IMG/VR virus record: IMGVR_UViG_3300032251_000001
Coordinates: 71,789-135,788 of that record
Strand: one strand, 5' to 3'
Origin: a virus
DNA: 64,000 nucleotides
The translations under genes were made by a program, and so were the position numbers. Each line of letters opens with the position of its first letter. Positions within the stretch are counted from its first letter, which is position 1. Under the pieces are notes generated by a model. That model was not told where the DNA came from and did not search any database. It saw only the letters and a list, made by a program, of their open reading frames with translations. Below, piece by piece: positions 26,235-54,518 of this stretch.

Positions 26235-26264
26235 TGAATAATGATAATATTAAGGAGAATAACT

Positions 26265-27128
26265 ATGAAAATGTTTAAGAGGAACTGTTGTGACGGAATT
26301 TATAACTCATTTGATGTACACTTTACTGATGCATGTGACAACAAATGTGAACACTGTATTGACATGAAGTATGATGGTCTAGGTATTAAGAAACCTAATC
26401 CTAAAGCTATAGCTGATACCATCTTAAAGAACCAAGAAGGATATGATGACGTATTATTCTTAGGTGGAGAACCATGTTTATATCTTGATGAATTAATAGA
26501 ATGTATTAGAATAATAAAGATACATACTGAATTAAAAGTATTTATAACTACAGCTATTCCTAAGACTTGCTTTGATGAAAGAGAGAAATTTGAAAAATTA
26601 CTTAGAATGGTTGATGGAATTAACTTATCAGTTCAACATTACAGAGAAAGTGAAGCTGACTTTATTAGAAATGTAGGTGAATCTAAATATGATAGACAAG
26701 AGTTCTATAATAGTTTACCACATAAGGATAAGATTAGAATCAATTTAAATATTGTAAAGCCTTTCCTTTACACTAAGCAAGACATCTTAAGTTGTTTACA
26801 ACACTATGATAAGATGGGATTCAACTCTATTAAAATATCTGAAATTCAACATGGTAAAGAGTACTTTGTATCATTTGAAGAAGTATTTGGTATTAAGTTA
26901 GGTTCACCATTCTATCATGGTTGTCAAACATATTTAGATATGGATACAATTACACAAGGTTTTAAAACTCCAGTATTACTTAAACGTTCATGCTTTATGT
27001 GTGAAGAAACACTTAAAGCTTCGTTTATGGATGGAGTTAAAGTTGTTCATCAATCTATATTTAAAAAGGTTGATAATAAATACTCTGTTATCTATGGTAA
27101 TGGGAAAAAAGAAGGAGGTTGGGTTTAA
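26265..27128 (+). CDS. radical SAM enzyme, putative peptide maturase
   Basis: CDNKCEHC (CxxxCxxC), FLGGEP; start moved to ATG 26265 after taaggag. Confidence 0.88.
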   Translation: MKMFKRNCCDGIYNSFDVHFTDACDNKCEHCIDMKYDGLGIKKPNPKAIADTILKNQEGYDDVLFLGGEPCLYLDELIECIRIIKIHTELKVFITTAIPKTCFDEREKFEKLLRMVDGINLSVQHYRESEADFIRNVGESKYDRQEFYNSLPHKDKIRINLNIVKPFLYTKQDILSCLQHYDKMGFNSIKISEIQHGKEYFVSFEEVFGIKLGSPFYHGCQTYLDMDTITQGFKTPVLLKRSCFMCEETLKASFMDGVKVVHQSIFKKVDNKYSVIYGNGKKEGGWV

Positions 27129-35321: not shown

Positions 35322-37118
35322 TTAAACTTCTAATATCTTTGCTTTAACAGTTTTGAATTTAACATCATCCATCTTAATATTAGGTTTAAAGAAATCATTA
35401 AACCAATCAATAAATACTTCCTCTTTAGTTAATTCAACACCAAATCCAGCTACATCTTGTAAGAACTCAGACTTATTAATAGAAGAGCCTGGACAAGTCT
35501 TACTAGAATACTCATTATGGAATACACTCTTAATGTTAAATAATCCATTAAAGTACTTAGTGAATTCAAGCATAGATTCTTTTTGTGGACCACTAAATGT
35601 ATCATTACCTTTATCAAAGTTTGCAATCATTTCAATAGCAAATCCTAGGTAATTTCTACCTTTAATTGATGCAGGGTTACTGTTAAAGTCTCTACCAACA
35701 ATCCACTTACCATCTGGAGCTAATGATAGATGTTGACCTATATCTCTCCATTTAAGAGTATTTACATGGTAGTTCCACATACCTTGCTGTAGTGACTGAT
35801 GGTTAGTACCAGTAAAGTGTTTGTGAGAAGGACTCCAAGTATGATGAACATGTAACTCTCTAGGAGTTCTAGTCCATTTAAATTGTTGACAATACTTAAT
35901 TAATTCAGCAGTTGTCATTACTTTAAATCTTTCATCTTCACTACCAACTAACTTAATATACTTACCACTTGTCCATTTATCTTCACCAATTCTATACCAA
36001 CCATTCTTCTCTTCATAAACTTTAACAACTTCATTTCGGTCTAAACGGTCTACAATAGGACAGTCTTTATAATTTGAACTACTAACAACTTTACCACCAC
36101 GAATATTCAATACACTTGTGCCAGTAACTATACCTTTTTGTGTTTCTTCTTCTACAGGCTTTGGAATTACTTTAACGTAATCTCTAACATATGCCTTATT
36201 TGCAGATATAAATTGATTTTTATCAGTTCTATACCAACCATTAGCTACACCAGTTACAGTAACAATGTCTCCTTTAAAGTAATCTCCAACATCATCATAC
36301 TGGACACCAGAACCTTCTCTAATATTTAATCTTGTAGCAATAATTTGAACTTTCTTGTTAATTTTTTCCATGTGATTATCAACATAGTCAATCTTATATT
36401 CTTTAGCATAAATAACTAAGGCATTAGCAATATTTCTTTCAACTCCACCATTAAGATAGTTAACAACTTTACCATCAACTTCCATTTCAGATGAACCACC
36501 ACCATCAGCGTTAACTGAGTTGTGTGCCTGTAGTTCCATCATAACTTCAGCACTTTCTTCAGCTGTAAGTCCTTTATCATTAGTATTTCTACCTTCAGCA
36601 ACAACTAATAACATAGTGTTATCAAGTCTTTGACCAACTAATGTTCTTGGATGTCTTTCATTAGAATGTGTATGATGTTCAGCACCTTCTAAATTAATTT
36701 CACCATCTTTAGTAAGTCTATAAGATAATGATGCACCCCATTGTGCTTTTCGGTCATACTTAGCTTTGAATTCTGCAGTACTTATATCTTCAATAATAAG
36801 TTTATTATTCATAAAGATAGTTTCCATAAAACCTTTACCAATAGAATCTGGTGTACTGAATGTGAAACCACTATCAGTATAGTCTAATCCTACTGCTGCA
36901 ACCTTTTTTACCCATGCAAAGAAAGATAAGTTTACTGCTGCAACTTTCTTATAACCTCTGTCTTCAAACCATTTGTGTCTAATTTTAGTTAAAGGTTCTC
37001 TTTTCTTTCTATCTCCAGCACAGTTCATTACAATTAAGTCTTTACTAGGCATGAATTCTAAAACATGAATATCTGTACCAAATCTTCTCATAGTACTATA
37101 TTTAACCAACTGCTTCAT
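35322..37118 (-). CDS. modular endolysin: phosphodiester glycosidase (NAGPA/DUF2233) + 2x SH3b + Amidase_2
   Basis: HPRT...EGR...GLT...NADGGGSS; two LNIR...GWYR SH3b repeats; HVHHT...DIGQH...AIE...H...KTCPG; start moved to ATG 37118 (SD aggagg). Confidence 0.85.
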   Translation of the reverse strand: MKQLVKYSTMRRFGTDIHVLEFMPSKDLIVMNCAGDRKKREPLTKIRHKWFEDRGYKKVAAVNLSFFAWVKKVAAVGLDYTDSGFTFSTPDSIGKGFMETIFMNNKLIIEDISTAEFKAKYDRKAQWGASLSYRLTKDGEINLEGAEHHTHSNERHPRTLVGQRLDNTMLLVVAEGRNTNDKGLTAEESAEVMMELQAHNSVNADGGGSSEMEVDGKVVNYLNGGVERNIANALVIYAKEYKIDYVDNHMEKINKKVQIIATRLNIREGSGVQYDDVGDYFKGDIVTVTGVANGWYRTDKNQFISANKAYVRDYVKVIPKPVEEETQKGIVTGTSVLNIRGGKVVSSSNYKDCPIVDRLDRNEVVKVYEEKNGWYRIGEDKWTSGKYIKLVGSEDERFKVMTTAELIKYCQQFKWTRTPRELHVHHTWSPSHKHFTGTNHQSLQQGMWNYHVNTLKWRDIGQHLSLAPDGKWIVGRDFNSNPASIKGRNYLGFAIEMIANFDKGNDTFSGPQKESMLEFTKYFNGLFNIKSVFHNEYSSKTCPGSSINKSEFLQDVAGFGVELTKEEVFIDWFNDFFKPNIKMDDVKFKTVKAKILEV

Positions 37119-37485
37119 CATCGTCCTCCTCTTCTGAATCATAACCATAATCATTATAGTCACGATAATCTTCTTCATTGTTATTAGTTACCTTAACTCG
37201 GTTATCTTCTTTCTTGTTAAGTACTTTGTCATTTCGACTAACAAACTTGTTAACCATTTTAGTTCCAAAGTAACCACCCAATATAACCATAAGTGGATTT
37301 GACATAATTCTTAATGTGTCTACTACTGCATCTTGAATGTTACTTTCAAGAAATAGACCCTTCCATACAATCATACCTGATGCGGCTACAAATGCTATAA
37401 CAAATACCACACTTATAAAATCGGTGATTGATACTCCATCCGCATCATTAAGAAAAGTTCTAATTTTTCGTGCCATGATATGCAC
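37102..37485 (-). CDS. putative holin (two TM helices, charged C-terminal tail)
   Basis: Two TM segments; overlaps the endolysin start. Confidence 0.6.
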   Translation of the reverse strand: MHIMARKIRTFLNDADGVSITDFISVVFVIAFVAASGMIVWKGLFLESNIQDAVVDTLRIMSNPLMVILGGYFGTKMVNKFVSRNDKVLNKKEDNRVKVTNNNEEDYRDYNDYGYDSEEEDDDEAVG

Positions 37486-40315: not shown

Positions 40316-41140
40316 TTAGTATTTAATGTTTTTCTTAAATTTAATACCACTGTGACTATATTTATAGTAATTTAACTTTGAGCTACAATTATTACAAGGG
40401 AAAGCTTTTTTATTATCTATATTTGCGTAGTTTCTAAAACCCACAGCTTTACTAGAATTGAATATATGGTCTAGATTATTATCTTTCACATTACCTAGTA
40501 TAAAAACTTGGTGTAATTGATTATCTGTGTGAATCTGACAACATGGTGACACATTACCATTCAAATCAATACCTATATATTCTATAGGTTTAGTACAGTT
40601 ATTAGAATTTATATCACTATAGTCATCTGTGGATTTATCATTTTTAACTTCAAGTAATTCATTTTTAGTAAAATCTACAATATAAATTATTTGCATATTA
40701 TTTAATTTTCCTTCAATATAAGTATCATAAACTTGTACTATGTCAACACCTAATTCATACAATATATTATAACATTTTTCTCTACCCATGCAATCATAGT
40801 CTTTAATTACAAGTTTATCTAAGTTTAAGTCTTTTAAAGCATCCTTAGATAAATAATCTCCATTAGTAGAAGCTACTAAGGTAGCATTAGGTAATCTATC
40901 TTTAATAATATTTACTTTTCTTTTTAGTTCTTCAGTGTATAATAATACTTCATTATTTCTTGAAAAAGATATCATTTCAGAATATTTAACTTGTTCTAAG
41001 TCCTTAATTATCTTAAGATAAACTTCATCAGACATAACTTCATCAGTATTATATTTATCAAATCTTTTACAACAGAACGAACAACTTCTATTACACTTTC
41101 CATGAATTTCAAGTTCTATCAATTTAACACTATTTAACAT
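40316..41140 (-). CDS. radical SAM protein with SPASM/twitch domain
   Basis: CNRSCSFC, NEVLL; C...IDLNGNVSPCC...GN...CNNC. Confidence 0.88.
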   Translation of the reverse strand: MLNSVKLIELEIHGKCNRSCSFCCKRFDKYNTDEVMSDEVYLKIIKDLEQVKYSEMISFSRNNEVLLYTEELKRKVNIIKDRLPNATLVASTNGDYLSKDALKDLNLDKLVIKDYDCMGREKCYNILYELGVDIVQVYDTYIEGKLNNMQIIYIVDFTKNELLEVKNDKSTDDYSDINSNNCTKPIEYIGIDLNGNVSPCCQIHTDNQLHQVFILGNVKDNNLDHIFNSSKAVGFRNYANIDNKKAFPCNNCSSKLNYYKYSHSGIKFKKNIKY

Positions 41141-41349: not shown

Positions 41350-42744
41350 ATGAAAAAGAGAAATTTATTACTAAACTTAACACTTGTAGTTTTATTAATG
41401 AGCATTTTATGTGTTCCAGCATTTGCATCTGAGGACGAATTGAATGTAGAACTTAATGGAGAACAAATTGAATTTGGTGAAACTGAACCTACAATTATTG
41501 ATGGTAGAACAGTATTACCTGCAAGAACAATCTTAGAAGCTTTAGGATTAGAAATTGGTTGGGATGCTAAAACCAAAACTGTAACTGGCACAAGAAAAGG
41601 ATTAGATATAGTACTTCAAATAAACTCAACTAAAGCTTGGGTTAACAATGTTGCACAAACATTAGACGTACCTGCAACAATTATTGATGGTAGAACTTAT
41701 TTACCAGTAAGATTTATTGCAGAATCAACTGGATGTACTGTTGGTTGGGATGCTGAAACTAAAACAGTTTCTATCACTAGTGAAGAAGCAGGATTCTACA
41801 CTGAAGAAGTAATGATTCAAAATACTAATGAAGGTTTATATTTAAAAGAAGATTTTAAATTTTATGAAAATGATTACACATCAGAAAACCTTTCTAAATT
41901 AATTGAAGCTACACCAGCTAGTGAAGAAGTTACTGAACTTAGAGCTAACAATGATAACAAATATCGTGATGGTTTAAATGTAATGAACTTTAAATACTTT
42001 GACCTTTATTATCCTAAAACTGAAGACGGTCAAGCAGCAGCTGAATCAATTGCTAAACATGCTGATAAAGCTTATATGTTCCTTACTGATATGTTTGATG
42101 GACAACAAGTACATGTTGAAGTTCACTTAATTCGTGAAGAAGATATGGGTGGTATTGATGAAGGTATTGCAAGAAAAGAAAACAAAGTTACTTTCGTATA
42201 TATTAATCCTGAGAAAATGGAAAAATACGAAGAAATGTTAATTCCATCTTTAGTACATGAAATGTTCCACAACTTCTTCTCAATTAACAATAATGTTTGG
42301 AATTTCGAAACAGAATTAAGAACGTTTACTGAAGAAGGTATTGCAAGAATAATTGGTGGTATCTATGTAGATTCTATTGCTAGAGAAACTAATGATTATA
42401 ACACTTACAACAACTTTATGGTAGGTACTTATCACTTTGATGTATCTTCTTTAAGAAAATTAACAAATGAATTAGATTACAATCCAACAGTTGAAGACGC
42501 TACTGATTCTGTTCTTACAAATCAATGGTGGACACCAACTAAAGAAGCTTTAGTTGATAGAAATATGGTTATATTATATTGGGCAAACTTATACAATACT
42601 AAAGGTATTGAAAGCTTTAAAACTATCTTAAACACTATGGGTAGTGATGCTGATAACAATATTAAATTAACAATTGAAAATGCTATCAATGATACATTAG
42701 AAAACTCATATGATGAGTTTGAAGCTTTAATCTTAAATGATTAG
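41350..42744 (+). CDS. secreted protein: signal peptide + copper-amine-oxidase N-terminal (stalk) domain + HExxH metallopeptidase-like domain
   Basis: MKKR...PAFA signal; two IIDGRTxLPxR repeats; VHEMFH...EEGIA. Confidence 0.8.
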   Translation: MKKRNLLLNLTLVVLLMSILCVPAFASEDELNVELNGEQIEFGETEPTIIDGRTVLPARTILEALGLEIGWDAKTKTVTGTRKGLDIVLQINSTKAWVNNVAQTLDVPATIIDGRTYLPVRFIAESTGCTVGWDAETKTVSITSEEAGFYTEEVMIQNTNEGLYLKEDFKFYENDYTSENLSKLIEATPASEEVTELRANNDNKYRDGLNVMNFKYFDLYYPKTEDGQAAAESIAKHADKAYMFLTDMFDGQQVHVEVHLIREEDMGGIDEGIARKENKVTFVYINPEKMEKYEEMLIPSLVHEMFHNFFSINNNVWNFETELRTFTEEGIARIIGGIYVDSIARETNDYNTYNNFMVGTYHFDVSSLRKLTNELDYNPTVEDATDSVLTNQWWTPTKEALVDRNMVILYWANLYNTKGIESFKTILNTMGSDADNNIKLTIENAINDTLENSYDEFEALILND

Positions 42745-42751
42745 TATTAAA

Positions 42752-42792
42752 AAGAGAATAGACTATAATAGTCTATTCTCTTATTTTTTTTT
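42752..42792. terminator. bidirectional terminator
   Basis: aagagaatagacta/tagtctattctctt stem with A and T tracts. Confidence 0.75.
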
Positions 42793-43705
42793 AGTTCTTT
42801 ACACCAATAGCCTCTTCTCTACTTTTTTTGTTTGCATTATAAGATGCATCTGTACCTTTAGTAAAATCTTGGAATTCACCTTCGAAATAAGTAGGTTTAA
42901 ATATCTTCCCACCATCAGTTCCAAAGTATCTGTACTCTTCATCAGTTTTAAGTGCTTCTTCTTTTTTTCTAGTAGAATAAGCTTCAACATCAGTAATAGG
43001 TTCACTGTATTCATTAATTTCAACTCTATTTAAATGACTAAATTCTTCTTCAAGTTGTTTAATAACTTCATAATATCTTTTAATATAATATGGTGTAGAT
43101 GGAGTATCACCTTTTAGAGCTTGTATGGTGAATGTTCTAACTCCGATACTTCTTAAGAACTTAACATTATTATAGAACTTATCAACATCAGTAATAACTA
43201 ATCTAATTACTGCAAATGGGAAGTACTTTAATAAGAATTTAACATTCTTAATAACTATATCATAAGAACCTCTACCATTATGGAATACTCTACAAGCATC
43301 ATGTGCTTCTTGGTCTCCATCTATACTAACATGAATGCTTAAAAAATCATGGAATTTAAATAATTCTTTAACTTTTCTTTCATTAAGAAGTGTTCCATTT
43401 GTAATGGTATTAAACATAATGTTTCTTCCTTTTAAGAAATATTCATTATAAGCATATTCAGTTATAGCATAAAATACTTCGTAATTTAAAAGAGGTTCTC
43501 CTCCAAATAACATTATTCTAGCAGTTACTTCGTTATCAACCATTTCCATTATTTCATCCACTATATTTTTAGCAGTCTCAAAATCTATTTTTTTTCTAGA
43601 TTTACCATCTTCATAGCAATATGTGCAATTAAGATTACAATATTCACACAGATATATCACATGTAGATGGTCATTACATTTTACAAACTCATTACTTTCG
43701 CTCAT
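42791..43705 (-). CDS. radical SAM protein without a SPASM domain
   Basis: CNLNCTYC, LFGGEPLL, TNGTLL, SIDG...HDACR; no C-terminal Cys cluster. Confidence 0.9.
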   Translation of the reverse strand: MSESNEFVKCNDHLHVIYLCEYCNLNCTYCYEDGKSRKKIDFETAKNIVDEIMEMVDNEVTARIMLFGGEPLLNYEVFYAITEYAYNEYFLKGRNIMFNTITNGTLLNERKVKELFKFHDFLSIHVSIDGDQEAHDACRVFHNGRGSYDIVIKNVKFLLKYFPFAVIRLVITDVDKFYNNVKFLRSIGVRTFTIQALKGDTPSTPYYIKRYYEVIKQLEEEFSHLNRVEINEYSEPITDVEAYSTRKKEEALKTDEEYRYFGTDGGKIFKPTYFEGEFQDFTKGTDASYNANKKSREEAIGVKN

Positions 43706-44564
43706 AATTTTCCCCCATATTTGTCCAAACTTTATTAGTTTGAATTATCATAGAATAATACATTTTTAAATCTGCACTAATTCTATCATCATCCAAAGAT
43801 GTTGCTTCTTCATAAACATCAACAATACTTGAATTATTGATATCGTTACCTTTTAATCGTGTCTGTATAGATATTGATTTTTGTTTTTCCATCATTGGGA
43901 ATAATTTTAAAGGTCTTTCTTGATTTAAAATGTATTCACAAATTTGTTTATGATGTTCTATAAATAATTTTACAAATCTATCATCAATATCAGTTTTATT
44001 AACTCCAATGTTTATTAAGTTAAATCCTAGGTTATATAATGATTTAATTCCACTGAACAACGAACCTATATTTAATTTATGAACAGTCATAGTTACTATA
44101 GGTTCAACTTTTAACTCTTTTAAAAATTTTTTAGAGTTCTCAGCAACTATACTGTATGTTCCTTTTCTTGTAGATTTAAAATGTCTACAACTATCATGCA
44201 TTATTTTGTTACCATCTATAGATATTCCTATTTCAAAAACTTTCTTAGAGTTTATAAAATCAACTATATCTTTTGAATATATAGTTCCATTAGTTGTAGC
44301 TATATATCTTGTAATTCTAAAATCAGAATATTTAGTTTCAATGTAGTTACATGCAAACTTAATTCCATCCATATTAAGAAATGTTTCTCCACCAATGAAT
44401 TCAAACTCAATATCATCTTTATTACTTGCATTAGAGAATATAAAATCAATATTCTTTTCAAGTTCAGAATTGGATAAGTTCTTAGAAGACTTATCCAATT
44501 CATAACAATATGAGCAATCAAGATTACATACTTTAGTTATATATAAAGTATATCTTTTTCTCAT
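43692..44564 (-). CDS. radical SAM protein without a SPASM domain
   Basis: CNLDCSYC, FIGGETF, TNGT, SIDG...HDSCR. Confidence 0.9.
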   Translation of the reverse strand: MRKRYTLYITKVCNLDCSYCYELDKSSKNLSNSELEKNIDFIFSNASNKDDIEFEFIGGETFLNMDGIKFACNYIETKYSDFRITRYIATTNGTIYSKDIVDFINSKKVFEIGISIDGNKIMHDSCRHFKSTRKGTYSIVAENSKKFLKELKVEPIVTMTVHKLNIGSLFSGIKSLYNLGFNLINIGVNKTDIDDRFVKLFIEHHKQICEYILNQERPLKLFPMMEKQKSISIQTRLKGNDINNSSIVDVYEEATSLDDDRISADLKMYYSMIIQTNKVWTNMGENYERK

Positions 44565-44566
44565 AA

Positions 44567-45706
44567 TTAACCTCCATATGATGCAGGGTCTATTGTTTTC
44601 TCCCAGTTAGGATTACCTTTAAGTTTTGCTTCAAGTTCTCTTGCAACTTTATAATTTATCTTATGAAGTTTACAAACATTTGAAATACATTTGAACTTAG
44701 TACCACTATCTTCCCACATTGAAGCTACACATTGACCTAAGCAATTGTAATCTTTAAATGTATCACATGTAGAACAACCATTAAAATTTTTAGCTGAATA
44801 ATTTTGGAAGAAAATACTCCATGAAGATTTAATATATAAACCTTTTTCTAAATCACCCATTTTGAATGGACTTCTATTGTTATAGAATCTTTGACATGGA
44901 TATATATCACCATCAGGTGAAATTCCCCATTGTCTTACTCCAGCACCACAGAATGTTCTAGATTGATAAGTAAAGTCTAATAATGGAATAGCAAATAAGT
45001 CACACCATAAGCCTAAATCTATGTTGTCAGCATACCAATTTGCTAACTCTCTAATAACTTCTTCATACTTAATAACATCTTCATCAGTCCATATAGCTTC
45101 TCTAACTAAAGCCATATCAATTTTAGTTACACCTATACTTAATAGATACTTTACATTTTTCATAACAAAATGTAAATTAGATGGAGCTATCATTGACTTT
45201 GTAGATATATGGGTTCTATCAACACCATATACTTCACAATATTTACGAATACCTTCATTTACTTCTTCAAAACTTCCAGAACCATCATGATGTATTCTAC
45301 CAAAATCATGTGCTTCCTTACAACCATCCATTGAGAAGTTATAATGAATACAACCTAAAGGTCTTGTAAAGTTAAGTATATCATAATCAAGTAATACTGA
45401 ATTAGTAAAAATAATTGCTCTCACTCTTCTAGGATACTTTTTTTCTAACTCAACTACTGCTTCTATCATTAATTTTAAATCACCATTCTTCCAAAGAAGT
45501 AATGGTTCTCCACCAAATAAATCTATATTAACATTAAAATTATCAAGTATTTTAAGTTCAGCTTGTTTAATAAGTAATCTAAACGTTTCAATACTCATCA
45601 TTTTAGGGTTATCTTTAACATAACAATATTTACATGCAAGATTACATTGTTCAGTTAATATTGGTGTAAATCTAAATATTTGTCTCTTATTGCCATTGTC
45701 ATTCAT
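44567..45706 (-). CDS. radical SAM/SPASM peptide maturase (anSME/ranthipeptide-type)
   Basis: CNLACKYC, LFGGEPLL; CGAG...PDGDIYPCQRF...CSTC...CLGQC...C. Confidence 0.92.
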   Translation of the reverse strand: MNDNGNKRQIFRFTPILTEQCNLACKYCYVKDNPKMMSIETFRLLIKQAELKILDNFNVNIDLFGGEPLLLWKNGDLKLMIEAVVELEKKYPRRVRAIIFTNSVLLDYDILNFTRPLGCIHYNFSMDGCKEAHDFGRIHHDGSGSFEEVNEGIRKYCEVYGVDRTHISTKSMIAPSNLHFVMKNVKYLLSIGVTKIDMALVREAIWTDEDVIKYEEVIRELANWYADNIDLGLWCDLFAIPLLDFTYQSRTFCGAGVRQWGISPDGDIYPCQRFYNNRSPFKMGDLEKGLYIKSSWSIFFQNYSAKNFNGCSTCDTFKDYNCLGQCVASMWEDSGTKFKCISNVCKLHKINYKVARELEAKLKGNPNWEKTIDPASYGG

Positions 45707-45724
45707 AATGTACCTCCAAGTCCA

Positions 45725-46786
45725 TTAATCTTTATCGTCTTCTCTTAAATAGAGAATAATATCTTCATGAGTTCTACATATTGCATCATTGTTAACATAT
45801 TCATTGTTCTTCATAAATGCTGAGAAATCACCTTTACATTGATATCTATGTCCACAATCTGCACATTTTATATTAGAATAGAATTCTAATCCCTTATCGA
45901 AATCTACACCTGTATGTATATTTCCTATTGGGTCATTGTTAAAGAACTTACTTCTAGTTGAAATGTGTACATCTCCACCTTTAAAGTAAGCAAATTGATG
46001 CAATCTGCCAGTTCTTTGTATCTTATCTACAGCCCAACCTTTAGTTGGTCTTTCAATAATTATACCTAAATTTCTCATTATATCAATTGAATTTCTAATC
46101 TTACTAGTGTAGTCTTTACTGTCAACTCTTGAAAGAACATTATAGTCTTGATATTCGAATAATGGTATAATTTTATTAGCAATACCTAAATCTGTGAAGT
46201 GCTTAAGTTCTTTAATGATACCTGTGTAATGCTCTTCAGGTTTCAAAGTTATTAAATATCCAAATACTTTAGGATAATTTTCACTCATCTTTATATATTT
46301 TTTAACATTTTCAAAACGTTGTTCGAATAATGGAGATTCCATCTTTGGTAAAGAAAGATTTAATTTGAAATTGTAATTGTTAAATAAATCTTCAGTATTT
46401 TCAAGCATATTTACTGCATTTGAAATCATTAATGAACTATAATATTTAAATCTTCTTTTCACTTCTTTCATAATATACATTACTAAGTCTATATTCATAC
46501 TAGGTTCTCCACCTGTAAGTATTAAATATGGTCCATAACCTTTATATTCTTTTTCTAAAAAATCAAAAAGAGCATCAACATCTTTTTCTTCCATGTCATC
46601 AGTCATCATATTAGTTTTATCTTTGTGCCAACAAAAACTGCATGTCTCATTACATCTGTCAGTTAATTGCATTATAACAGGTATTGGTGTCACAGAATTA
46701 TAGGTAGGGCAAGATGCCCTATCTATATTACATTCCTGTGAGTATCCACCGAGACTGCATGTATAACATTTACCTTCGTTATTCAT
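45725..46786 (-). CDS. radical SAM protein with an N-terminal Cys cluster and partial SPASM
   Basis: CYTC...C...C at the N-terminus; CNETCSFC, LTGGEP; CADC...C...C at the C-terminus. Confidence 0.85.
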   Translation of the reverse strand: MNNEGKCYTCSLGGYSQECNIDRASCPTYNSVTPIPVIMQLTDRCNETCSFCWHKDKTNMMTDDMEEKDVDALFDFLEKEYKGYGPYLILTGGEPSMNIDLVMYIMKEVKRRFKYYSSLMISNAVNMLENTEDLFNNYNFKLNLSLPKMESPLFEQRFENVKKYIKMSENYPKVFGYLITLKPEEHYTGIIKELKHFTDLGIANKIIPLFEYQDYNVLSRVDSKDYTSKIRNSIDIMRNLGIIIERPTKGWAVDKIQRTGRLHQFAYFKGGDVHISTRSKFFNNDPIGNIHTGVDFDKGLEFYSNIKCADCGHRYQCKGDFSAFMKNNEYVNNDAICRTHEDIILYLREDDKD

Positions 46787-46813
46787 ATAGTACCCAACTT
46801 TCTTTCGTTATTC

Positions 46814-47392
46814 TTACCATTCGTCTGCGAAACCTTCACATGTAGGAACTCCATCATTATTATGACAATCACAGTAACATCTTGCATCACAAGCACATCT
46901 TGAATCACAAGTACAAGCGTAGTTACAGTCACAAGTACAAACATTATGACAATCACAAGAACATCTAGCATCACAAGTACAAGCATAATCACAGTTACAA
47001 GAACATCTACCATTACAAGAACATCTAGCATCACAAGTACAAGCATAATCACAGTTACAAGTACAAGCATAATTACAGTTACATGAACATCTTGCATTAC
47101 AAGTACAATAATTAGTAATTTCAGTTGATAAAGATTTAAGTAGTTCAAGAATACTCACTCTTATAGGTTGACCTACAACAAAAGACGTTAATGAATTAAC
47201 ATCAGCTTCAGCACCAGACTCATCATTAGCTTCAATTACTCTATCTTTAAGATATTGAATGTCTGAAGCCTTTATTACTCCTGTAAATGTTTTTGATACA
47301 GTTCCTAATCCCCACTTCGTTCTAGCAGCATTAATCATAGATAAAGTTGATGCTGCATCAGACGATACTATTATAGTGTTTATCGAGGGCAT
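46814..47392 (-). CDS. Cys-repeat precursor-like protein 2 (95-aa N-domain + 97-aa core, 31 Cys)
   Basis: CxC(N/D)xR and CxCxCxYA repeats; C-terminus GFADEW; paralog of 47428..48036. Confidence 0.88.
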   Translation of the reverse strand: MPSINTIIVSSDAASTLSMINAARTKWGLGTVSKTFTGVIKASDIQYLKDRVIEANDESGAEADVNSLTSFVVGQPIRVSILELLKSLSTEITNYCTCNARCSCNCNYACTCNCDYACTCDARCSCNGRCSCNCDYACTCDARCSCDCHNVCTCDCNYACTCDSRCACDARCYCDCHNNDGVPTCEGFADEW

Positions 47393-47427
47393 TTCTTATA
47401 CCTACCTTCCTTATTTACATATGTTTT

Positions 47428-48036
47428 TTACCATTCATCTGCAAAACCACCACATCCAACATTACCATCATTATTATGACAGTCACAGTAACATCTAGAA
47501 TTACAAGCACATCTACCATTACAAGTACATGAATAGTTACAGTTACAAGTACAAGCATAGTTACAGTCACATGAACATCTTGCATTACAAGTACATGAAT
47601 AGTTACAGTTACAAGTACATGAATAGTTACAGTTACAAGTACAAGCATAGTTACAGTCACATGAACATCTACCATTACAAGTACAAGCATAGTTACAGTT
47701 ACAAGTACATGAATAATTACAATCACATGAACATCTTGCATTACAAGCACAATGATTAGTAATTGCAGTTGCTAAAGCTTTAAGTAATTCAATAATACTT
47801 GCTCTTATAGGTTGACCTACATCAAATCCTGTCACAGTCTCCATGTTTTGACCAGCTCCAGCTTGAGTGTTAGCTTCACTTACTCTATCTTTAAGATATT
47901 GAATGTCTGCTGATTGGATAGTTCCTGTAAATGTTTTTGATACAGTTCCTAATCCCCACTTCGTTCTAGCAGCATTAATCATAGATAAGGCTGATGATGA
48001 GTCAGATGATATTATTATAGCGTTTACTACTGGCAT
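47428..48036 (-). CDS. Cys-repeat precursor-like protein 1 (95-aa N-domain + 107-aa core, 35 Cys)
   Basis: Five CxCNxR and seven CxC(D/N)CNY(A/S) units; C-terminus GFADEW; AACA-N6-TA upstream at 48176-48187. Confidence 0.88.
   Translation of the reverse strand: MPVVNAIIISSDSSSALSMINAARTKWGLGTVSKTFTGTIQSADIQYLKDRVSEANTQAGAGQNMETVTGFDVGQPIRASIIELLKALATAITNHCACNARCSCDCNYSCTCNCNYACTCNGRCSCDCNYACTCNCNYSCTCNCNYSCTCNARCSCDCNYACTCNCNYSCTCNGRCACNSRCYCDCHNNDGNVGCGGFADEW
47521..47634. repeat. exact 24-nt coding repeats within precursor 1
   Basis: acaagtacatgaatagttacagtt at 47521, 47587 and 47611. Confidence 0.85.
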
Positions 48037-48175
48037 TTATTATACCTACCTTTCTTTTAAATAATTTTGATAATGATTTAAAGGAATTTTCATTATCTAC
48101 ATTTTTTCTATAGGTATGTATATACATACAATATAGCTTCCTTTAAATAAGATAATATTGCATATAATACCTTAT

Positions 48176-48187
48176 TAATAAAATGTT
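48176..48187 (-). promoter_or_regulatory. AR9-like late promoter motif AACA-N6-TA (representative)
   Basis: Same motif upstream of operon heads at +3602, +23664, +24507, +27369, +34029, +37637 and -41213, -52724, -54519, -63583. Confidence 0.6.
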
Positions 48188-48232
48188 TTAAGAATATATC
48201 TTAAATACATGTATTGATATACTAAAGTTTAA

Positions 48233-48547
48233 TTAGTATATATCAAATACTAATGTTAACAATTCCCTATCTCCTTTGTCATCATATTGTAATAGGAGAA
48301 AATTTGTATATGTTTTTGTACGTTTTCCAAAAGTTATAGTTAAACTTAGTATTTCTTCTTCACGTTTACACATAAGTTTATTTAATATTATTAAACCATT
48401 ATCTTTTATACTTGCATTTGTAATGTGCAATCTTTTGTATAAATGTTCACGTACAACTTCAAAGGATAGTTTATTATCAGTATCTTCATAAATTTGATGT
48501 ATCACACCTGATTTATATTCTAAATCATATTTAACCAAATATATCAC
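48233..48547 (-). CDS. small hypothetical protein in the rSAM cluster
   Basis: 104 aa between the SPASM gene block and the precursors. Confidence 0.65.
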   Translation of the reverse strand: MIYLVKYDLEYKSGVIHQIYEDTDNKLSFEVVREHLYKRLHITNASIKDNGLIILNKLMCKREEEILSLTITFGKRTKTYTNFLLLQYDDKGDRELLTLVFDIY

Positions 48548-48598
48548 TTCCTTTATAATTAGTCTAGGGTCAATAATTCAACCCTAGACTAATATTAA

Positions 48599-48931
48599 TT
48601 ATGACACTTTACAAGTTATTTTTTCAATTGTTTGCCCTGTATCATTGTCTGTTCCTAAATAATATTGCATATCATAAATAGTTCCTTCTTTAATGTTTTT
48701 CCCATCAAGTAAGAATTTAAACTTAACAGTTTCAGAAGATAATGTTAATTTAGTATCTATTAAATCTTCAATATTTAATTCAAATTCAGGATTTCTGATT
48801 TCAAGAATTTTAACTATTTCATCAGCTCCTTCTGGATGAGTGTGTATATATGTTGATTTGATAGCTGTATCTTTCTCATTAAATTCTATCTCTTTAGTTA
48901 CTTCATCATAACTAAATATAATTCTCATCAT
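48599..48931 (-). CDS. small acidic hypothetical protein in the rSAM cluster
   Basis: 110 aa directly after the 48934 rSAM. Confidence 0.7.
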   Translation of the reverse strand: MMRIIFSYDEVTKEIEFNEKDTAIKSTYIHTHPEGADEIVKILEIRNPEFELNIEDLIDTKLTLSSETVKFKFLLDGKNIKEGTIYDMQYYLGTDNDTGQTIEKITCKVS

Positions 48932-48933
48932 AA

Positions 48934-50340
48934 TTACACCTCTTCTTCAGATTCTTTATTAATAGATAATGCTATTAATTCAAGGATACCGAATATAGAA
49001 TCAATCTTATTTTCTAATACATCAATTCGGTTTACATGTTCTCCAATACTTTCTAAAGAAGTACCTAATGCTTCCATAACTGGTGTGATAGTTTCTAGAG
49101 TATATTTAGCAATTTCTTTAAAATCAATTTCAACTTTAGCATTGTCTTTATCTCCACAACTACAACCATCAACTCCACAAGTTCCAGATTTAGAATTATT
49201 AATAAGACCAGCTTCAGCCATTCTATCTCTTAAACTATAACGAATTTCTCTTTCAACTCTAGACAACTTACAGTATGCAGGGAAACCTACAAACATATTG
49301 TCATTAGCAGCATAATTTGTAGCGATACATGTATAACATTCAGTGTTATTACATTCTGCACAGTTCATATCGCCAAACATATTAGTTTTATCATATTGAA
49401 GGAATAAGTCACGTTTACCATCAACTTCTCCACCTTCTAAAACATTACCATAATCAAATTCATCAGAATCTATAAAGAAAAATTGATGACAAGGATAGAG
49501 TCTACCATCTGATGCAATAGAACAATAGTTCTTTCCAGCACCACAAGGAGCATCAGGTTTTGTTCCCTTACAATTAGCTAAAGAAGCATATCCTGTATAG
49601 TATCTTGATGTATCATTTTCAACACAATCATCATAAACTTTATCAGCAATAAGAGTAAGTTGTTCTCTGAATATTTCCTCATCACTATCTTCCCATTCAT
49701 CTTCATGTAATGGCATAAACCATATAGAATCTATACCTAGATTTCTCATATGCATGTAACTTTCAAATAATCTTGGAAGTGCTGGTTTATTTACAACACC
49801 ATGAATACTTAATGAGAATGGTGTTAAAGGAATTTCTTGCTCTTTAAATAAGTCTAAATACTTAACTAATGTAGCTTCAATTAAAGCTGATGAACCCTTA
49901 CCATCTGCAGTAATTCTAAATTGGTCATTAACTTCTGGAACTCCATCATATGAAATTTGAATTTGGATATCCTTAAGAGTATTCCACCATTTAATTAAAA
50001 ATAGTCTGTAATCTTCAGTGAATACTGTACCATTGGTAATAATCATACATCCAAATCTTAAATTTTCTTCCTCACATCTTTTAACAGCATAGTCAAAAGT
50101 ATGTTCCATTGTTGGAACGTTTAGTGCTGGCTCTCCACCAAAGAAAGTAATGTTAATACTGTCTTGTTTAGCAATCTTAGCATTTTCAATAAGATACTCA
50201 ACACCAGCTTCAGCTACTTCAAAGCTCATATGTTTGTTAGGATGTTTACCACCTTCGAAACAATATGTACATCTTAAATTACACGCTTCAGTTAGGATAA
50301 ATGAAGCGTTATTTGGGTGGTCTTGCAATTTCTTAGTCAT
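48934..50340 (-). CDS. radical SAM/SPASM peptide maturase with an extra C-terminal Cys motif and coiled coil
   Basis: CNLRCTYC, FFGGEP; CGAG...DGRLYPCHQF...CAEC...CYTC...C; TCGVDGCSC. Confidence 0.92.
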   Translation of the reverse strand: MTKKLQDHPNNASFILTEACNLRCTYCFEGGKHPNKHMSFEVAEAGVEYLIENAKIAKQDSINITFFGGEPALNVPTMEHTFDYAVKRCEEENLRFGCMIITNGTVFTEDYRLFLIKWWNTLKDIQIQISYDGVPEVNDQFRITADGKGSSALIEATLVKYLDLFKEQEIPLTPFSLSIHGVVNKPALPRLFESYMHMRNLGIDSIWFMPLHEDEWEDSDEEIFREQLTLIADKVYDDCVENDTSRYYTGYASLANCKGTKPDAPCGAGKNYCSIASDGRLYPCHQFFFIDSDEFDYGNVLEGGEVDGKRDLFLQYDKTNMFGDMNCAECNNTECYTCIATNYAANDNMFVGFPAYCKLSRVEREIRYSLRDRMAEAGLINNSKSGTCGVDGCSCGDKDNAKVEIDFKEIAKYTLETITPVMEALGTSLESIGEHVNRIDVLENKIDSIFGILELIALSINKESEEEV

Positions 50341-50395: not shown

Positions 50396-50704
50396 TTACT
50401 TAGCTTCTACATCTTCAATTACTGGGTTAGTTAATACTTGAATTAGTTCAAGAATTCCACTAGCATAGTTAATACCTTTAGTTTTTAAAACTAAATCAAA
50501 ACATGAACTGAGAAGTTTAGACTGTTCATCATTTAATTCATAAATACTAAACTTACCATCTTCTAGAATCACATCAGGTTTACTAAAGTGAACTAAAAGA
50601 TTAAAGATTTGATGAATGTTATTTAGACCAGTTTCTCTTACAACTACGTCTAAACATCTCTTGATATTTTCTACTTGTGGCTTAGAAAGTTTAAATTTTG
50701 ACAT
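50396..50704 (-). CDS. hypothetical helical protein with an internal duplication
   Basis: Lx(K/D)xQxxxxxxCxDxVxxxxG occurs twice. Confidence 0.7.
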   Translation of the reverse strand: MSKFKLSKPQVENIKRCLDVVVRETGLNNIHQIFNLLVHFSKPDVILEDGKFSIYELNDEQSKLLSSCFDLVLKTKGINYASGILELIQVLTNPVIEDVEAK

Positions 50705-50823
50705 TGTATTTCTCCTTTATAATATAAGTTATACCTTAATTTTATAATGATTAGTTCCTGTTTATTTTAAGAGATAAAAAATATACGTTTAGACAAAGTC
50801 ATCTAAACGTACACTTAATTATA

Positions 50824-52683
50824 TTATAAATTTTTAATAAACATTTTAATTCTTTTAATTCCAGCACATCCATCATAATTTTCAACAGACATTCCAACAA
50901 TTGAACCTTTTGGGGTATCTTCAAACTCACCAAGAGCTCTTCCAACACCAGGAATATCTGAACTTACAATATATTGACCTCTCTTAACAGCACCAACTAC
51001 TTTAACTTTAACTCTTCCAGCCATGCCAATAGGAATAAAGTTATCCTTATCTTTATCATCACCATTTCCACCAATACATTGTGCAAATGTATCTGAATGA
51101 ACACCAACTACTTCTTCAGATTTTTCAGTAGTTACTTTTATATACTTTTCCTTATCAGAATTGACATCAATTATAACAATGTCACCAGGTTCAGTTTCAT
51201 TACCTTTTTCAAAGTACTCAGCATAATCATTCCATACTGCATTAAATACTTGAGATGCATAAAGAACACTATGGATATTTAATCTACTTGCAGTGTTTGT
51301 AGGTGCAACAAGTCCAGTATCACATGATATTCCTTGAATTTTTTCAGTATCAACAGCCTTAGAAGTGGCATCTAATTTACCAGAAAGTGACGTTTGAGTT
51401 GCAGGATTTAATGTAGTTGTAAGTGTTACATCTTGAGAACCATCAAAAGCAATTGTCCCTGTAACAGCTCCAATAACATTTATATCTCTAACAGTTTCTA
51501 ACTTTACTGCTTTAGCTGCTGAAGCTGTTAAAGGTAAATACTCATGAGTGTGACCATCTAATGCAAAGTCTGAAGCGTGTAAGCCATCAAGTTTATCTGC
51601 ATCGAATAATGATAAATGACCTCCATTACCTTCATGGAATAATTTAAATCCATTAACTCCATTATGGAAAACAGGTGCATTTAAATTTCTTGAGATTTCC
51701 ATTCCATACCAAGTACCTGTACTATCTAGAGGTTGCCCATCAGCAACATAAGCTTCAGACATTTTTAGTAAAATATTACCATTCTCTGAATCTAAAACTA
51801 ATGCTGCAGGGTAGTTAGATGTACCATTTGAAGTTACTCCATCCACAGTTCCAGCACCAAGTAACAATGCATCTGTAAGTAGACCTTCTCCATACGTATC
51901 TATTTGAGTTTTAGTTACTACAAAGTTAGTGTTATCACCTTCACCAAAGGTTATACCTTTATCACCTGTAAACTTAATATCAGTAGTTAATTCACCACCA
52001 ACACTAACTTTTTTAGATAATTCAGTCATTATAGTTGCAGCAAAGTCTGGGTCATTGTTTAGTGCATTACCAATTTCAACTAGAGTGTTTAATGCATCTG
52101 GAGCTGCACCAATTAATTCTTGCATTCTTGCATCTGATTCAACTTTAGTATAAACTAATGAAGAATCTACTTTATTATTCCAATTAGATTTTTCACCATC
52201 AGTTACAAATCTACTTGTAGAATTTTGAACTATAATACTAGCTGGATGAGTGCTAGGATGATTATAGTTATTAGCAAGACTTTCAATATTATCTAATTTA
52301 TTAAGTAATTCGTCAGTTATAAATCTATTTGTAGAATTTTGAACTATAATACTAGCTGGATGAGTACTAGGATGCATATAATTAGTAGCACCTTCAGATA
52401 TGCCATCCAATTTAATCTTATCATCAGCAGTAAGCAGTCCATCACCTAAATCAGATACTAATCCTATAAGATTTATTAAATCTTCTTTAGTAACCACTCC
52501 ATCAATCTTACCGTTTATTGTTAAATTACTTATTCCAAGCGAATCTAACTGACCTGAAGTTAACAATCCAATCTTATCTAGAATTACTTGAGAAGTAACT
52601 CCTTCTAAATTTTTAAGCTCAACATCTGTAGTTAAAACGGTATTTATGCTAAGGTGATTTAGTTGTTCAATACCTATAGCCAT
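50824..52683 (-). CDS. tail fibre/spike protein with C-terminal IMC autoproteolytic (Peptidase_G2/S74-like) chaperone domain
   Basis: HPSTHPASII repeats, GAAPDALNTL.EI..LNNDPDFAAT, DADKLDGLHAS, NDYAEYF...GRVKVKV. Confidence 0.8.
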   Translation of the reverse strand: MAIGIEQLNHLSINTVLTTDVELKNLEGVTSQVILDKIGLLTSGQLDSLGISNLTINGKIDGVVTKEDLINLIGLVSDLGDGLLTADDKIKLDGISEGATNYMHPSTHPASIIVQNSTNRFITDELLNKLDNIESLANNYNHPSTHPASIIVQNSTSRFVTDGEKSNWNNKVDSSLVYTKVESDARMQELIGAAPDALNTLVEIGNALNNDPDFAATIMTELSKKVSVGGELTTDIKFTGDKGITFGEGDNTNFVVTKTQIDTYGEGLLTDALLLGAGTVDGVTSNGTSNYPAALVLDSENGNILLKMSEAYVADGQPLDSTGTWYGMEISRNLNAPVFHNGVNGFKLFHEGNGGHLSLFDADKLDGLHASDFALDGHTHEYLPLTASAAKAVKLETVRDINVIGAVTGTIAFDGSQDVTLTTTLNPATQTSLSGKLDATSKAVDTEKIQGISCDTGLVAPTNTASRLNIHSVLYASQVFNAVWNDYAEYFEKGNETEPGDIVIIDVNSDKEKYIKVTTEKSEEVVGVHSDTFAQCIGGNGDDKDKDNFIPIGMAGRVKVKVVGAVKRGQYIVSSDIPGVGRALGEFEDTPKGSIVGMSVENYDGCAGIKRIKMFIKNL

Positions 52684-53031: not shown

Positions 53032-54447
53032 TTAAGCATTCATGATAAGCATTTTAATACGCTTAACGCCTTCAGAACCATCATAATTTTCCATAGCTTT
53101 ACCAATTACAGTACCAGCAACATATTCCTTAGAATCAATAGCTTTACCAACACCAGCAATATCTGAACTTACAATAAGTTGATTACGTTTAACAGCACCA
53201 ACTACTTTAACTTTAACTCTTCCAGCCATGCCAATAGGAGCATATTTCTTTTCTTGTTCTTCTGGATTTCCAGCATTCTCAAGGTCTCCACCAATACATT
53301 GGGCATAATCATCAGAATAAACACCAACTACAGCGTTTGATAAAGCTTCAGTAGATTTAGTATAAACTTCTTTATCTGAATCTACACGAACAACTATATC
53401 GCCAGCTTCCAATTCACCTTCTTTTAAGAAGTACTCAGCATAATCATTATAAACTGCATTAAATACTTGAGATGCAGTAATAGTTCCACCAAATACACCA
53501 TTACCTGTAATTGCAGCATTGCCTGATGCATTAAGAGTAACATGACCATGACTAACTTTAGCAAATTCTGAAGCATGTAAGCCATCAACAGTATCTGCAT
53601 CAGTTGCTTGGGCATTTAAACCTAAATACAATGTAGCATGAGTATGAGTATCTCTAGCAAAATCTGAAGCTTGTAAGCCATCAACAGTATCTGCATCTAA
53701 TCCAGAATCAGCTCCATCAACAGTCTTTACTTTAGCTAAAATATTAGCAGATGTAAAATCTGTAACATTAACTTTCTTAGCAAGTTCTGTAGTCATAGTT
53801 GCAGCAAAGTCTGGGTCATTATTTAATGATGCTCCAATTTCAATAAGAGTATTTAAAGCGTCAGGTGCTGCACCAACTAATTCTTGGAATCTAAGGTCAG
53901 TTTCTTCCTTAGTATAAGCATTGACTGCATCCATTTTGTCATTCCATGTAGCTTTTTCAATATCTGAAACGAATCTACGATTACTATCTTCATCTATCAT
54001 GTTTGCAGAATGAGTTGAAGGATGTAAATATTTGTTTGCTTCTGGAGAAATTCCTGCTAATTTTAATTCTTCAGCTAAACTTGTAAACTTCTTTTCATCA
54101 GTTTCAGTAATAATGCTTGCAGGGTGAACAATAGGATGAACGTAATTATTTGCATTTAAAGCTATAGCATCTAATTTAATTTTATCCTGTGCATCCATTA
54201 AGCCATTTGTAGTGTTTGAAGCATTTACTAATACAGATTGTAAATCTACGTTAGTTACTTCTCCATCAAATTTACCATTAATAGATAAATTTTCTAATCC
54301 TAAAGCAATCTTTTCAGCATTATCTAAGGTTGCTAATTTTGCAAGAATAGTAGCTTTTTCGACACCTATAAGACCTTTAAGTTGCTCGTCAGTTGCTAAC
54401 AAGCCATCTAGTGCTAATTGATTAAGTTGCTCTATACCAATTGCCAT
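53032..54447 (-). CDS. tail fibre protein paralog with IMC chaperone domain
   Basis: MAIGIEQLN start at 54447; same motifs as 50824..52683 but lacks the central beta region. Confidence 0.8.
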   Translation of the reverse strand: MAIGIEQLNQLALDGLLATDEQLKGLIGVEKATILAKLATLDNAEKIALGLENLSINGKFDGEVTNVDLQSVLVNASNTTNGLMDAQDKIKLDAIALNANNYVHPIVHPASIITETDEKKFTSLAEELKLAGISPEANKYLHPSTHSANMIDEDSNRRFVSDIEKATWNDKMDAVNAYTKEETDLRFQELVGAAPDALNTLIEIGASLNNDPDFAATMTTELAKKVNVTDFTSANILAKVKTVDGADSGLDADTVDGLQASDFARDTHTHATLYLGLNAQATDADTVDGLHASEFAKVSHGHVTLNASGNAAITGNGVFGGTITASQVFNAVYNDYAEYFLKEGELEAGDIVVRVDSDKEVYTKSTEALSNAVVGVYSDDYAQCIGGDLENAGNPEEQEKKYAPIGMAGRVKVKVVGAVKRNQLIVSSDIAGVGKAIDSKEYVAGTVIGKAMENYDGSEGVKRIKMLIMNA

Positions 54448-54518
54448 TCTTTTCACCTTCCTTTTCAATTTAAAAGAAAAGACCTCAAATAGTATGAAGT
54501 CCTTTCTTAATTTTTTGT

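Follow-up and report, generated by a model that had tools for sequence, protein, structure and literature searches.

A conserved phage module of radical SAM enzymes and cysteine-repeat proteins with a probable role in maturing a fibre-like virion protein

We analyzed a viral gene unit in which radical S-adenosylmethionine (rSAM) enzymes are encoded together with two cysteine-repeat proteins, pre1 and pre2. The unit lies within a 64,000-nucleotide stretch of DNA (hereafter, the window) that represents the final 64 kb (positions 71,789 to 135,788) of IMG/VR virus record IMGVR_UViG_3300032251_000001, a contig of 135.8 kb with a completeness estimate of 53%. It forms one minus-strand block (50704-42791) comprising five rSAM genes plus pre1 and pre2. 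Judging from gene content, neighborhood and conservation, we consider it rather probable that this module matures a fibre-like virion protein, and not a peptide natural product. The enzymes would modify pre1 and pre2, the modification would be a thioether, and the protein would enter the virion. An original prediction, made from the letters of the DNA, had described this gene layout, and all genes were indeed found where it had placed them on the minus strand, including the paralogues of 202 and 192 residues with 35 and 31 Cys. The genes that carry the argument are as follows.

48934..50340, minus strand: rSAM1, 468 aa, lineage B; Radical_SAM 45.8 bits; SPASM 17.4 bits, under the Pfam cutoff
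47428..48036, minus strand: pre1, 202 aa, 35 Cys; residues 96-186 are 12 repeat units; C-terminal GFADEW
46814..47392, minus strand: pre2, 192 aa, 31 Cys; 11 repeat units; C-terminal GFADEW
45725..46786, minus strand: rSAM2, divergent; four N-terminal and four C-terminal Cys
44567..45706, minus strand: rSAM3, lineage A; SPASM 22.2 bits; PapB hidden Markov model (HMM) 160 bits
43692..44564, minus strand: rSAM4, short; PapB HMM 120 bits, profile positions 6-213 only
42791..43705, minus strand: rSAM5, short; Radical_SAM 79 bits; PapB HMM 144 bits, profile positions 8-234

The paralogues pre1 and pre2 are 71% identical. In both, a Cys-free N-terminal part of about 95 residues (the N-domain) is followed by an array that holds all of the Cys residues and is built from octads (C-S/T-C-D/N-C-N-Y-A/S) and hexads (C-x-C-N/D-x-R). 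One octad equals two CXXX units plus one additional Cys, the third residue of the octad, and the register is displaced by the hexads. There are 20 C-x3-C pairs in pre1, the regular spacings are C-x2-D/N and N/D-x2-C with an N/D-x-x-C from every spacer, and the DNA of pre1 has a 24/66/90-bp periodicity. An AlphaFold2 model of pre1 showed three helices in the N-domain (residues 1-95, pLDDT about 85), and the repeat part had pLDDT values below 50. When this model was used for Foldseek searches of PDB and BFVD and for VIA-align wide, all that came up were generic helical-bundle rows (Z ≤6.2), and the sole BFVD match was an uncharacterised myovirus protein. A complex prediction with three pre1 copies gave a score of 0.02, which carries no weight either way. 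None of the target models in NCBIfam or Pfam (a Pfam set without PF27846) matched pre1 or pre2, and neither did megablast and tblastn searches of GenBank phages with the region and with pre1 yield a match. Two long alternative-frame open reading frames (ORFs) of Val/Leu/Thr repeats (46783-47148 and 47415-47750, both on the minus strand) were rejected as genes and regarded as by-products of the Cys-repeat DNA. In a near-identical 233-kb contig, which is present in an ENA assembly, pre1 (L013:10001-10519) is exactly 30 residues shorter inside the repeat array and pre2 is of equal length; this reflects either strain variation in repeat number or assembly collapse.

The CxxxCxxC motif that had been predicted for all five enzymes of the unit was confirmed, and all five pass the Pfam Radical_SAM cutoff. 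The original prediction had also likened the block to sactipeptide and ranthipeptide clusters, which are typified by rSAM/SPASM enzymes next to Cys-rich ORFs, and had proposed HMM searches for Radical_SAM, SPASM and the RRE domain, the recognition element of peptides that are made by ribosomes and modified after translation (RiPPs). This comparison stood as far as the best matches are concerned, which are PapB, CXXX-repeat and SCIFF/CteB maturases, but a full SPASM-type Cys set is confined to rSAM1 and rSAM3. In rSAM1 the respective residues are Cys 266/273/284 and 327/330/335/338/357; rSAM4 has only Cys 13/17/20, 72, 126 and 209. The HMM scans recovered Radical_SAM throughout, left the SPASM match of rSAM1 below its cutoff, and found no RRE domain in rSAM1-rSAM5. 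The best NCBIfam match of each enzyme was the PapB ranthipeptide maturase model NF047865 (183, 50, 160, 120 and 144 bits for rSAM1-rSAM5; curated cutoff 340), followed by the CXXX-repeat-target maturase and then, in varying order, by other maturases of Cys peptides, such as the SCIFF maturase. Scores for rSAM1 and rSAM3 were 146 and 121 bits with TIGR04115 (cutoff 350), and 68 and 60 bits with TIGR04119 (cutoff 150). TIGR03974 (SCIFF maturase/CteB) reached 134 bits against a cutoff of 425, with alignments starting at profile position 104, and TIGR04463 (CrpC type) 60-76 bits against a cutoff of 525. The nearest solved structure is that of CteB (5WGG), residues 103-440 of which align with residues 16-362 of rSAM1 (E 4e-24). 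Because this alignment begins at CteB residue 103, the RRE part of CteB has no counterpart in rSAM1. The alignment of rSAM5 is limited to the CteB core (residues 101-287). For both CteB and PapB, the formation of S-C thioethers on Cys peptides is established.

IMG/VR was scanned with pre1 (10 loci) and with an alignment of its relatives (30 loci). Three further contexts came from exact-protein look-ups, and merging of near-identical loci left about 23 distinct loci. In the relatives, the N-domain shares 30-45% identity with that of pre1, and the array behind it comprises between 5 and about 40 units of the consensus C-T-C-D/N-C-N-Y(-x), with up to 90 Cys in 346 aa. In line with the synteny for which the original prediction had suggested a search, the repeat gene lies directly beside two to five rSAM genes in most of the loci, and nearly all have at least one rSAM gene within 8 kb. 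At least two rSAM genes are located directly upstream of the repeat gene in 16 of the approximately 23 loci, their frames often abutting or overlapping. Apart from locus L003, which is considered below, exceptions to this pairing are contigs that end at the repeat gene. Locus L029 has no rSAM gene upstream, and its 60%-identical relative L052 has two of them 3 kb downstream. A whole-protein profile detected 831 proteins in a set of 5.8 billion; the best 120 of these had no Pfam match, and the sole name given to them was 'hypothetical protein'. With one genome per species from 185,579 species, six loci were found, five of them in contigs of metagenome-assembled genomes. Four of these five show the same rSAM neighbors, and the remaining one is a weak match without them. 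The sixth, on the chromosome of Campylobacter concisus, is likewise a weak match that lacks rSAM neighbors. The module is thus mostly viral, and the comparisons support the view that rSAM genes and Cys-repeat proteins form one conserved functional module.

The rSAM proteins of these loci were compared in a quick maximum-likelihood tree of 73 sequences, from which redundant loci and ORFs shorter than 240 aa were excluded; support was calculated by the approximate likelihood ratio test (SH-aLRT) only, in a fast search. Three lineages could be distinguished. Clade A consists of the first cassette gene of the relatives and includes rSAM3 (SH-aLRT 98), which in BLAST comparisons matches the first rSAM of relatives with E-values of 1e-30 to 1e-38. 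Clade B consists of the rSAM genes that directly precede the repeat gene of relatives and includes rSAM1 (SH-aLRT 90). Clade C consists of short enzymes with a C-terminal C-x3-C-x2-C-x2-C motif. The sisters rSAM4 and rSAM5 attach beside it (81 for the whole group), and its short members are also the best BLAST matches of rSAM2, the placement of which in the tree is unsure because of its long branch. Since lineages A, B and C are matched by rSAM3, rSAM1 and rSAM2, respectively, the window contains the conserved triad plus two extra copies. These window-specific extra copies are rSAM4 and rSAM5, which have lost the auxiliary-cluster Cys.

The relatives also show features of their own. Many relatives (L004:9854-10270, L016:8001-8444, L020:7884-8366 and others) have an additional N-terminal extension of up to six C-x-G/A/S-H motifs; pre1 and pre2 lack this extension, which might be modified as a second site or might bind metal. 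An ORF of 100-160 aa with 3-7 Cys, designated A3 (e.g. L004:7565-7921), always follows the lineage-A rSAM gene in relatives and has no counterpart in the window. One A3 member weakly matches the CXXX-target model TIGR04117 of NCBIfam (E 2.5e-4), which serves as a lead only. Some module-bearing phages, namely G003 (IMGVR_UViG_3300033146_002768, 207 kb), CP220 and CPt10, have 11-16 rSAM genes, and downstream of the module some relatives encode further rSAMs with DegT aminotransferase and carbamoyltransferase genes.

Several observations connect the repeat proteins with the virion. In the window, the unit adjoins two tail-fibre genes on the same strand, and beyond these follow further structural genes on that strand.

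50824-52683 and 53032-54468, minus strand: two tail-fibre genes directly upstream of the unit; PHROG tail-fibre families, E 1e-19 to 1e-32

The relatives L003, L008 and L016 likewise have tail-fibre genes beside the module, and in L003 the repeat gene is located between tail-fibre proteins. The repeat ORF of 12 relatives has the C-terminal sequence S-D-x-R/N-L-K-x-x-I-x-Y, which corresponds to the first strand of Peptidase_S74, and the next ORF (84-103 aa) matches Peptidase_S74 profile positions 15/20-57 with 22-43 bits (cutoff 22). S74 chaperones drive the trimerisation of fibres and then self-cleave at that serine. The split form of the domain in these relatives implies a trimeric fibre made of the repeat protein. 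Examples are L008:9938-10842, L014:8001-8853, L016:8001-8994 and L017:8001-8934, where the domain consists of the final 12 residues of the repeat ORF and a separate ORF in another frame. We also considered a programmed frameshift that would join the two ORFs (frame -1 in L008; +1 in L014, L016 and L017). We judged a true split to be more likely than this, given that every downstream S74 ORF possesses a start of its own together with a Shine-Dalgarno-like sequence.

A further connection comes from the cultured Campylobacter phages CP220, CPt10, CP21 and IBB_35, which was found only via the protein of a relative, not via pre1 itself. These phages encode a 534-aa protein with six copies of the seven-residue unit CTCDCNY. 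Its gene is flanked by tail-tube/gp32 genes and by a gene for RnlA, a 'tail fibre attachment catalyst', and a clade-B rSAM gene is located 2-3 kb downstream; in CP220, the repeat protein is gp140 and the lineage-B enzyme is gp136. The repeat protein of IBB_35 (gene 3-9; 60,318 Da; 'no homologs') was detected by tandem mass spectrometry in purified virions (PMC3322345 Table S2). Homology of pre1 and the 534-aa protein over their full length was considered and dropped, because the N-domain profile shows no similarity to the latter.

The N-domain itself is a widespread three-helix module, with 1,489 cluster representatives. It recurs at N-terminal, internal or C-terminal positions in large proteins with RHS-repeat, FG-GAP or Big/Ig/fn3 domains (P0186-P0248), and one protein with this domain carries a gp37 trimerisation region. 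It appears to be an unnamed domain. According to the Atlas, viral proteins with an S74 domain also carry it N-terminally; we treat this as a lead only.

Taken at face value, these data would fit the following mechanism. In both pre1 and pre2, a folded N-domain of three helices would be joined to an array of Cys-repeat units that forms a rod, and the three rSAM lineages (A, rSAM3; B, rSAM1; C-like, rSAM2) would act on this array within the infected cell. In each unit, the lineage A and B enzymes, for which a radical SAM cluster and two SPASM clusters are predicted, would probably abstract a hydrogen atom from an acceptor residue's carbon and bond that carbon to a Cys sulfur. Candidate acceptors are the neighboring Thr/Ser, Asp/Asn, Asn and Tyr residues, with three Cys available per unit. 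With its single auxiliary cluster, the clade C enzyme may introduce one more link or some other change. The outcome would be a rod dense with thioether bridges, many per protein, and the modified protein would stay whole and be built into the tail-fibre apparatus. More tentatively, we propose that several unrelated phage lineages share a thioether-stapled fibre shaft of C-x-C-x-C-N-Y units, together with three co-evolving rSAM lineages, one for each Cys position; we regard this more specific version as possible, if somewhat doubtful.

Not all observations fit a maturation system for a fibre-like protein, and those that weigh against it are brought together here. Every maturase HMM score is far under its curated cutoff, and rSAM4 and rSAM5 are without the auxiliary-cluster Cys that known thioether-forming enzymes use. 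Locus L003, a 43.8-kb fragment, has a repeat protein and zero rSAM genes. The GFADEW ends of pre1 and pre2 contain no S74 strand, and no S74 ORF follows them. The detection of IBB_35 gene 3-9 in virions amounts to 2.6% coverage only (PMC3322345), and this protein has just the repeat module in common with pre1, not the N-domain. Finally, the N-domain as such does not indicate a virion anchor, because it is also found in RHS, FG-GAP and Ig-domain proteins.

Alternatively, the unit could be a classical RiPP cluster. The 95-aa N-domain would then be a leader that is cut off after the rSAM enzymes have crosslinked the Cys core, by a host protease or by the secreted HExxH protein encoded at 41350-42744, and a polycyclic peptide with an antimicrobial, signaling or metal-binding role would be freed at lysis. 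In favor of this, the enzyme families are known from ranthipeptide and sactipeptide pathways, the pair of paralogues with their near-identical N-domains is reminiscent of RiPP clusters with several precursors, the secreted HExxH-motif protein adjoins the unit, and pre1 and pre2 lack an S74 piece. However, the ORF list and the Pfam and PHROG scans revealed no protease or exporter gene within the unit, no RRE was found in its enzymes, and the presumed leader is a folded module common to large surface proteins. The designation 'precursor' in the original prediction, which implies a cleaved leader and a freed peptide, was accordingly not retained: the peptide-natural-product interpretation is disfavored because of the tail-fibre context, in which relatives are wired to a tail-fibre chaperone inside tail-fibre modules, the split S74 of these relatives, the repeat-bearing protein detected in virions, and the absence of a protease or exporter from the unit. 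We therefore judge a freed peptide to be unlikely.

Two other explanations dispense with the crosslinking of the repeats. The CxCxC arrays could ligate Zn, Cu, Fe or Fe-S clusters through unmodified Cys, the models being metallothionein, the His-x-His iron sites at the tip of the T4 long tail fibre, or a store for phage Fe-S enzymes. With their CxC motifs and about 33% Cys, the repeats resemble metallothioneins. These phages moreover encode 7-16 Fe-S-dependent rSAM enzymes, and a repeat protein without any rSAM gene in 43.8 kb, as in L003, would be understandable; CrpA, a Cys-repeat protein of Methanococcus voltae, has also been discussed as a possible metal binder (PMC13692751). We nevertheless give this idea little credence, as it fails to explain why the repeat gene is accompanied by three specific rSAM lineages of the peptide-maturase type, the frames of which often abut or overlap, and metal binding and crosslinking can coexist. 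As a further possibility, the rSAMs might act on substrates of another kind (sugars, nucleotides or cofactors, for instance), in which case it would be incidental that they are encoded beside Cys-repeat genes. The DegT aminotransferase and carbamoyltransferase genes that accompany downstream rSAMs in relatives, the lack of auxiliary clusters in rSAM4 and rSAM5, and the metabolic reading that the CP220 authors gave to their 11-12 rSAM genes (PMC2853527) are compatible with this. Such a coincidence seems very improbable, since the order of lineages A, B and C and their position next to the repeat gene are maintained across phages with proteins only 25-40% identical, and the closest enzyme families all act on Cys-rich peptides.

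Compared with known systems, the module is distinguished by its viral, tail-fibre setting, the co-travelling enzyme triad, the C-x-C-x-C-N-Y unit and the split S74 of the relatives, and a literature search found no description of a phage system of rSAM enzymes and a Cys-repeat fibre. To call it undescribed, as the original prediction did, is nonetheless too strong in view of the models TIGR04115/TIGR04119 and TIGR04117, a viral PF27846 cluster, and the thioethers shown for CrpA/CrpC (PMC13692751). The nearest described kind is the CXXX-repeat system (TIGR04115/TIGR04119 maturase with TIGR04117-type target, PF27846), followed by PapB, CteB and CrpC. It shares with the module an RRE-less rSAM/SPASM enzyme beside a target with tandem, regularly spaced Cys, and TIGR04115 is the second-best match of rSAM1 and rSAM3. 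In the Atlas, a viral cluster with PF27846 ('modification target Cys-rich repeat') is located near the N-domain, which again is a lead only. The module differs in the extra Cys of every second unit, in the register-breaking hexads and the 7-residue units of relatives, in having three to five rSAMs instead of one, and in being set in a phage tail-fibre block. The CXXX-repeat family is defined in databases only, and our literature search found no published biochemistry for it.

The PapB/PapA pair, which produces freyrasin, is similar with respect to the repeated substrate and the compact RRE-less enzyme. The freyrasin motif is Cys-X3-Asp. The units C-x-C-D/N-C-N-Y-x and C-x-C-N/D-x-R do not conform to a Cys-X3-Asp/Glu pattern, and PapA is a short peptide, whereas pre1 and pre2 are proteins of about 200 aa with a folded domain. 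CteB, which acts on CteA (SCIFF, thermocellin; 5WGG/5WHY), can be aligned over the rSAM core and SPASM domain and differs by an RRE domain that has no counterpart here. Fibres and spikes that fold with the help of a C-terminal, intramolecular S74 chaperone resemble the 12 relatives with an S-D-x-R-L-K S74 start, the genes being among tail-fibre genes; here, however, the domain is split, with one strand on the repeat protein and the remainder in a separate ORF. To our knowledge, no S74 fibre has a Cys-repeat shaft or dedicated rSAM enzymes. The rSAM/SPASM enzyme CrpC of Methanococcus voltae was reported in 2026 to install thioethers on CrpA, a protein-sized Cys-repeat substrate (PMC13692751). 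As in pre1 and pre2, the Cys of CrpA are concentrated C-terminally behind an N-terminal part that is shared with a paralogous partner; in contrast, CrpC has an RRE, the CrpA repeat has 17 residues with C-x-x-Q/D, and the system is cellular without a viral or fibre context (PMC13692751). In the phages CP220, CPt10 and IBB_35, 11-12 rSAM genes accompany a protein with six CTCDCNY units, and a lineage-B rSAM is encoded close to it. Their repeat is part of the 534-aa protein, which lacks the three-helix N-domain, and the respective papers treat the rSAMs as metabolic and the repeat protein as hypothetical (PMC2853527, PMC3322345); the CP220 paper called the 11-12 rSAM genes 'highly unusual' and guessed a metabolic role (PMC2853527).

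The boundaries of the unit are defined by two hairpin-like elements. The gene order is 102-aa ORF, rSAM1, orfA, orfB, pre1, pre2, rSAM2, rSAM3, rSAM4 and rSAM5, and neighboring genes are separated by anything from a 14-nt overlap to 55 nt, with the sole exception of 196 nt ahead of pre1. The remaining features of the unit and its surroundings are listed below.

50779..50816, minus strand: terminator-like hairpin, a 17-pair stem followed by a T run, directly after the tail-fibre gene; upstream edge of the unit
50396..50704, minus strand: 102-aa ORF, first of the unit; no family match; conserved in the 233-kb relative
48599..48931, minus strand: orfA, 110 aa; no match in Pfam, NCBIfam or PHROG
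48233..48547, minus strand: orfB, 104 aa; no match in Pfam, NCBIfam or PHROG
42752..42782, no strand assigned: inverted repeat of 14 pairs that separates rSAM5 from the convergent gene; likely downstream boundary
40316..41140, minus strand: rSAM6 (radical SAM/SPASM); SPASM 43 bits; Radical_SAM 29.0 bits, just below the cutoff

The inverted repeat is likely a terminator that serves both strands. In the Atlas, orfA matches viral hypothetical-protein clusters only, and comparisons of orfA, orfB and the A3 family of relatives showed no mutual relatedness. A sigma-70 promoter scan gave sites no more frequent than in shuffled controls. The original count of five rSAM genes is right for the unit, but the window also contains a sixth and a seventh. 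The sixth, rSAM6, sits outside the unit, past the convergent gene for a secreted protein, and in the tree it groups, on long branches, with rSAMs encoded downstream of the repeat gene in relatives. The seventh (26241-27128, plus strand, 295 aa) is distant from the unit and adjoins a gene (24921-26234, plus strand) for a protein with zinc-ribbon, CapR and Myb-like domains. The secreted protein (41350-42744, plus strand) has a signal-peptide-like start, a Cu_amine_oxidN1 match of 121 bits and a C-terminal part with the HExxH motif. Its gene, which is also conserved in the 233-kb relative, faces the rSAM unit in convergent orientation, and the product could be a moron or a peptidase. A multi-domain lysis protein of 618 aa with PHROG amidase and endolysin matches is encoded at 35322-37178 (minus strand). 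The window DNA has a G+C content of 28% and encodes a piece of a split RNA polymerase beta-prime. Distant relatives of the phage are the Bacillus jumbo phages AR9 and PBS1, with one virion protein 36% identical, and its host is likely a member of the Bacillota.

If the module does mature a fibre-like virion protein, radical chemistry of the RiPP type would serve a structural part of a virus particle, beyond the small secreted peptides. Direct tests are possible, since cultured Campylobacter phages carry the repeat along with a lineage-B enzyme. The RRE-less maturases, which are compact and would process dozens of sites per protein, would then also be on offer, and the split S74, or a frameshift site, may merit separate study. 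It would also become clear why some phages carry 7-16 rSAM genes, which has been called 'highly unusual' since 2010 (PMC2853527), and a fibre of this kind could withstand proteases, heat and reducing conditions. The more tentative proposal of a thioether-stapled shaft, if correct, would in addition assign a function to the long-unexplained rSAM sets of Campylobacter CP220-type and marine T4-like phages, and the shaft would be the first virion protein with enzyme-made carbon-sulfur cross-links.

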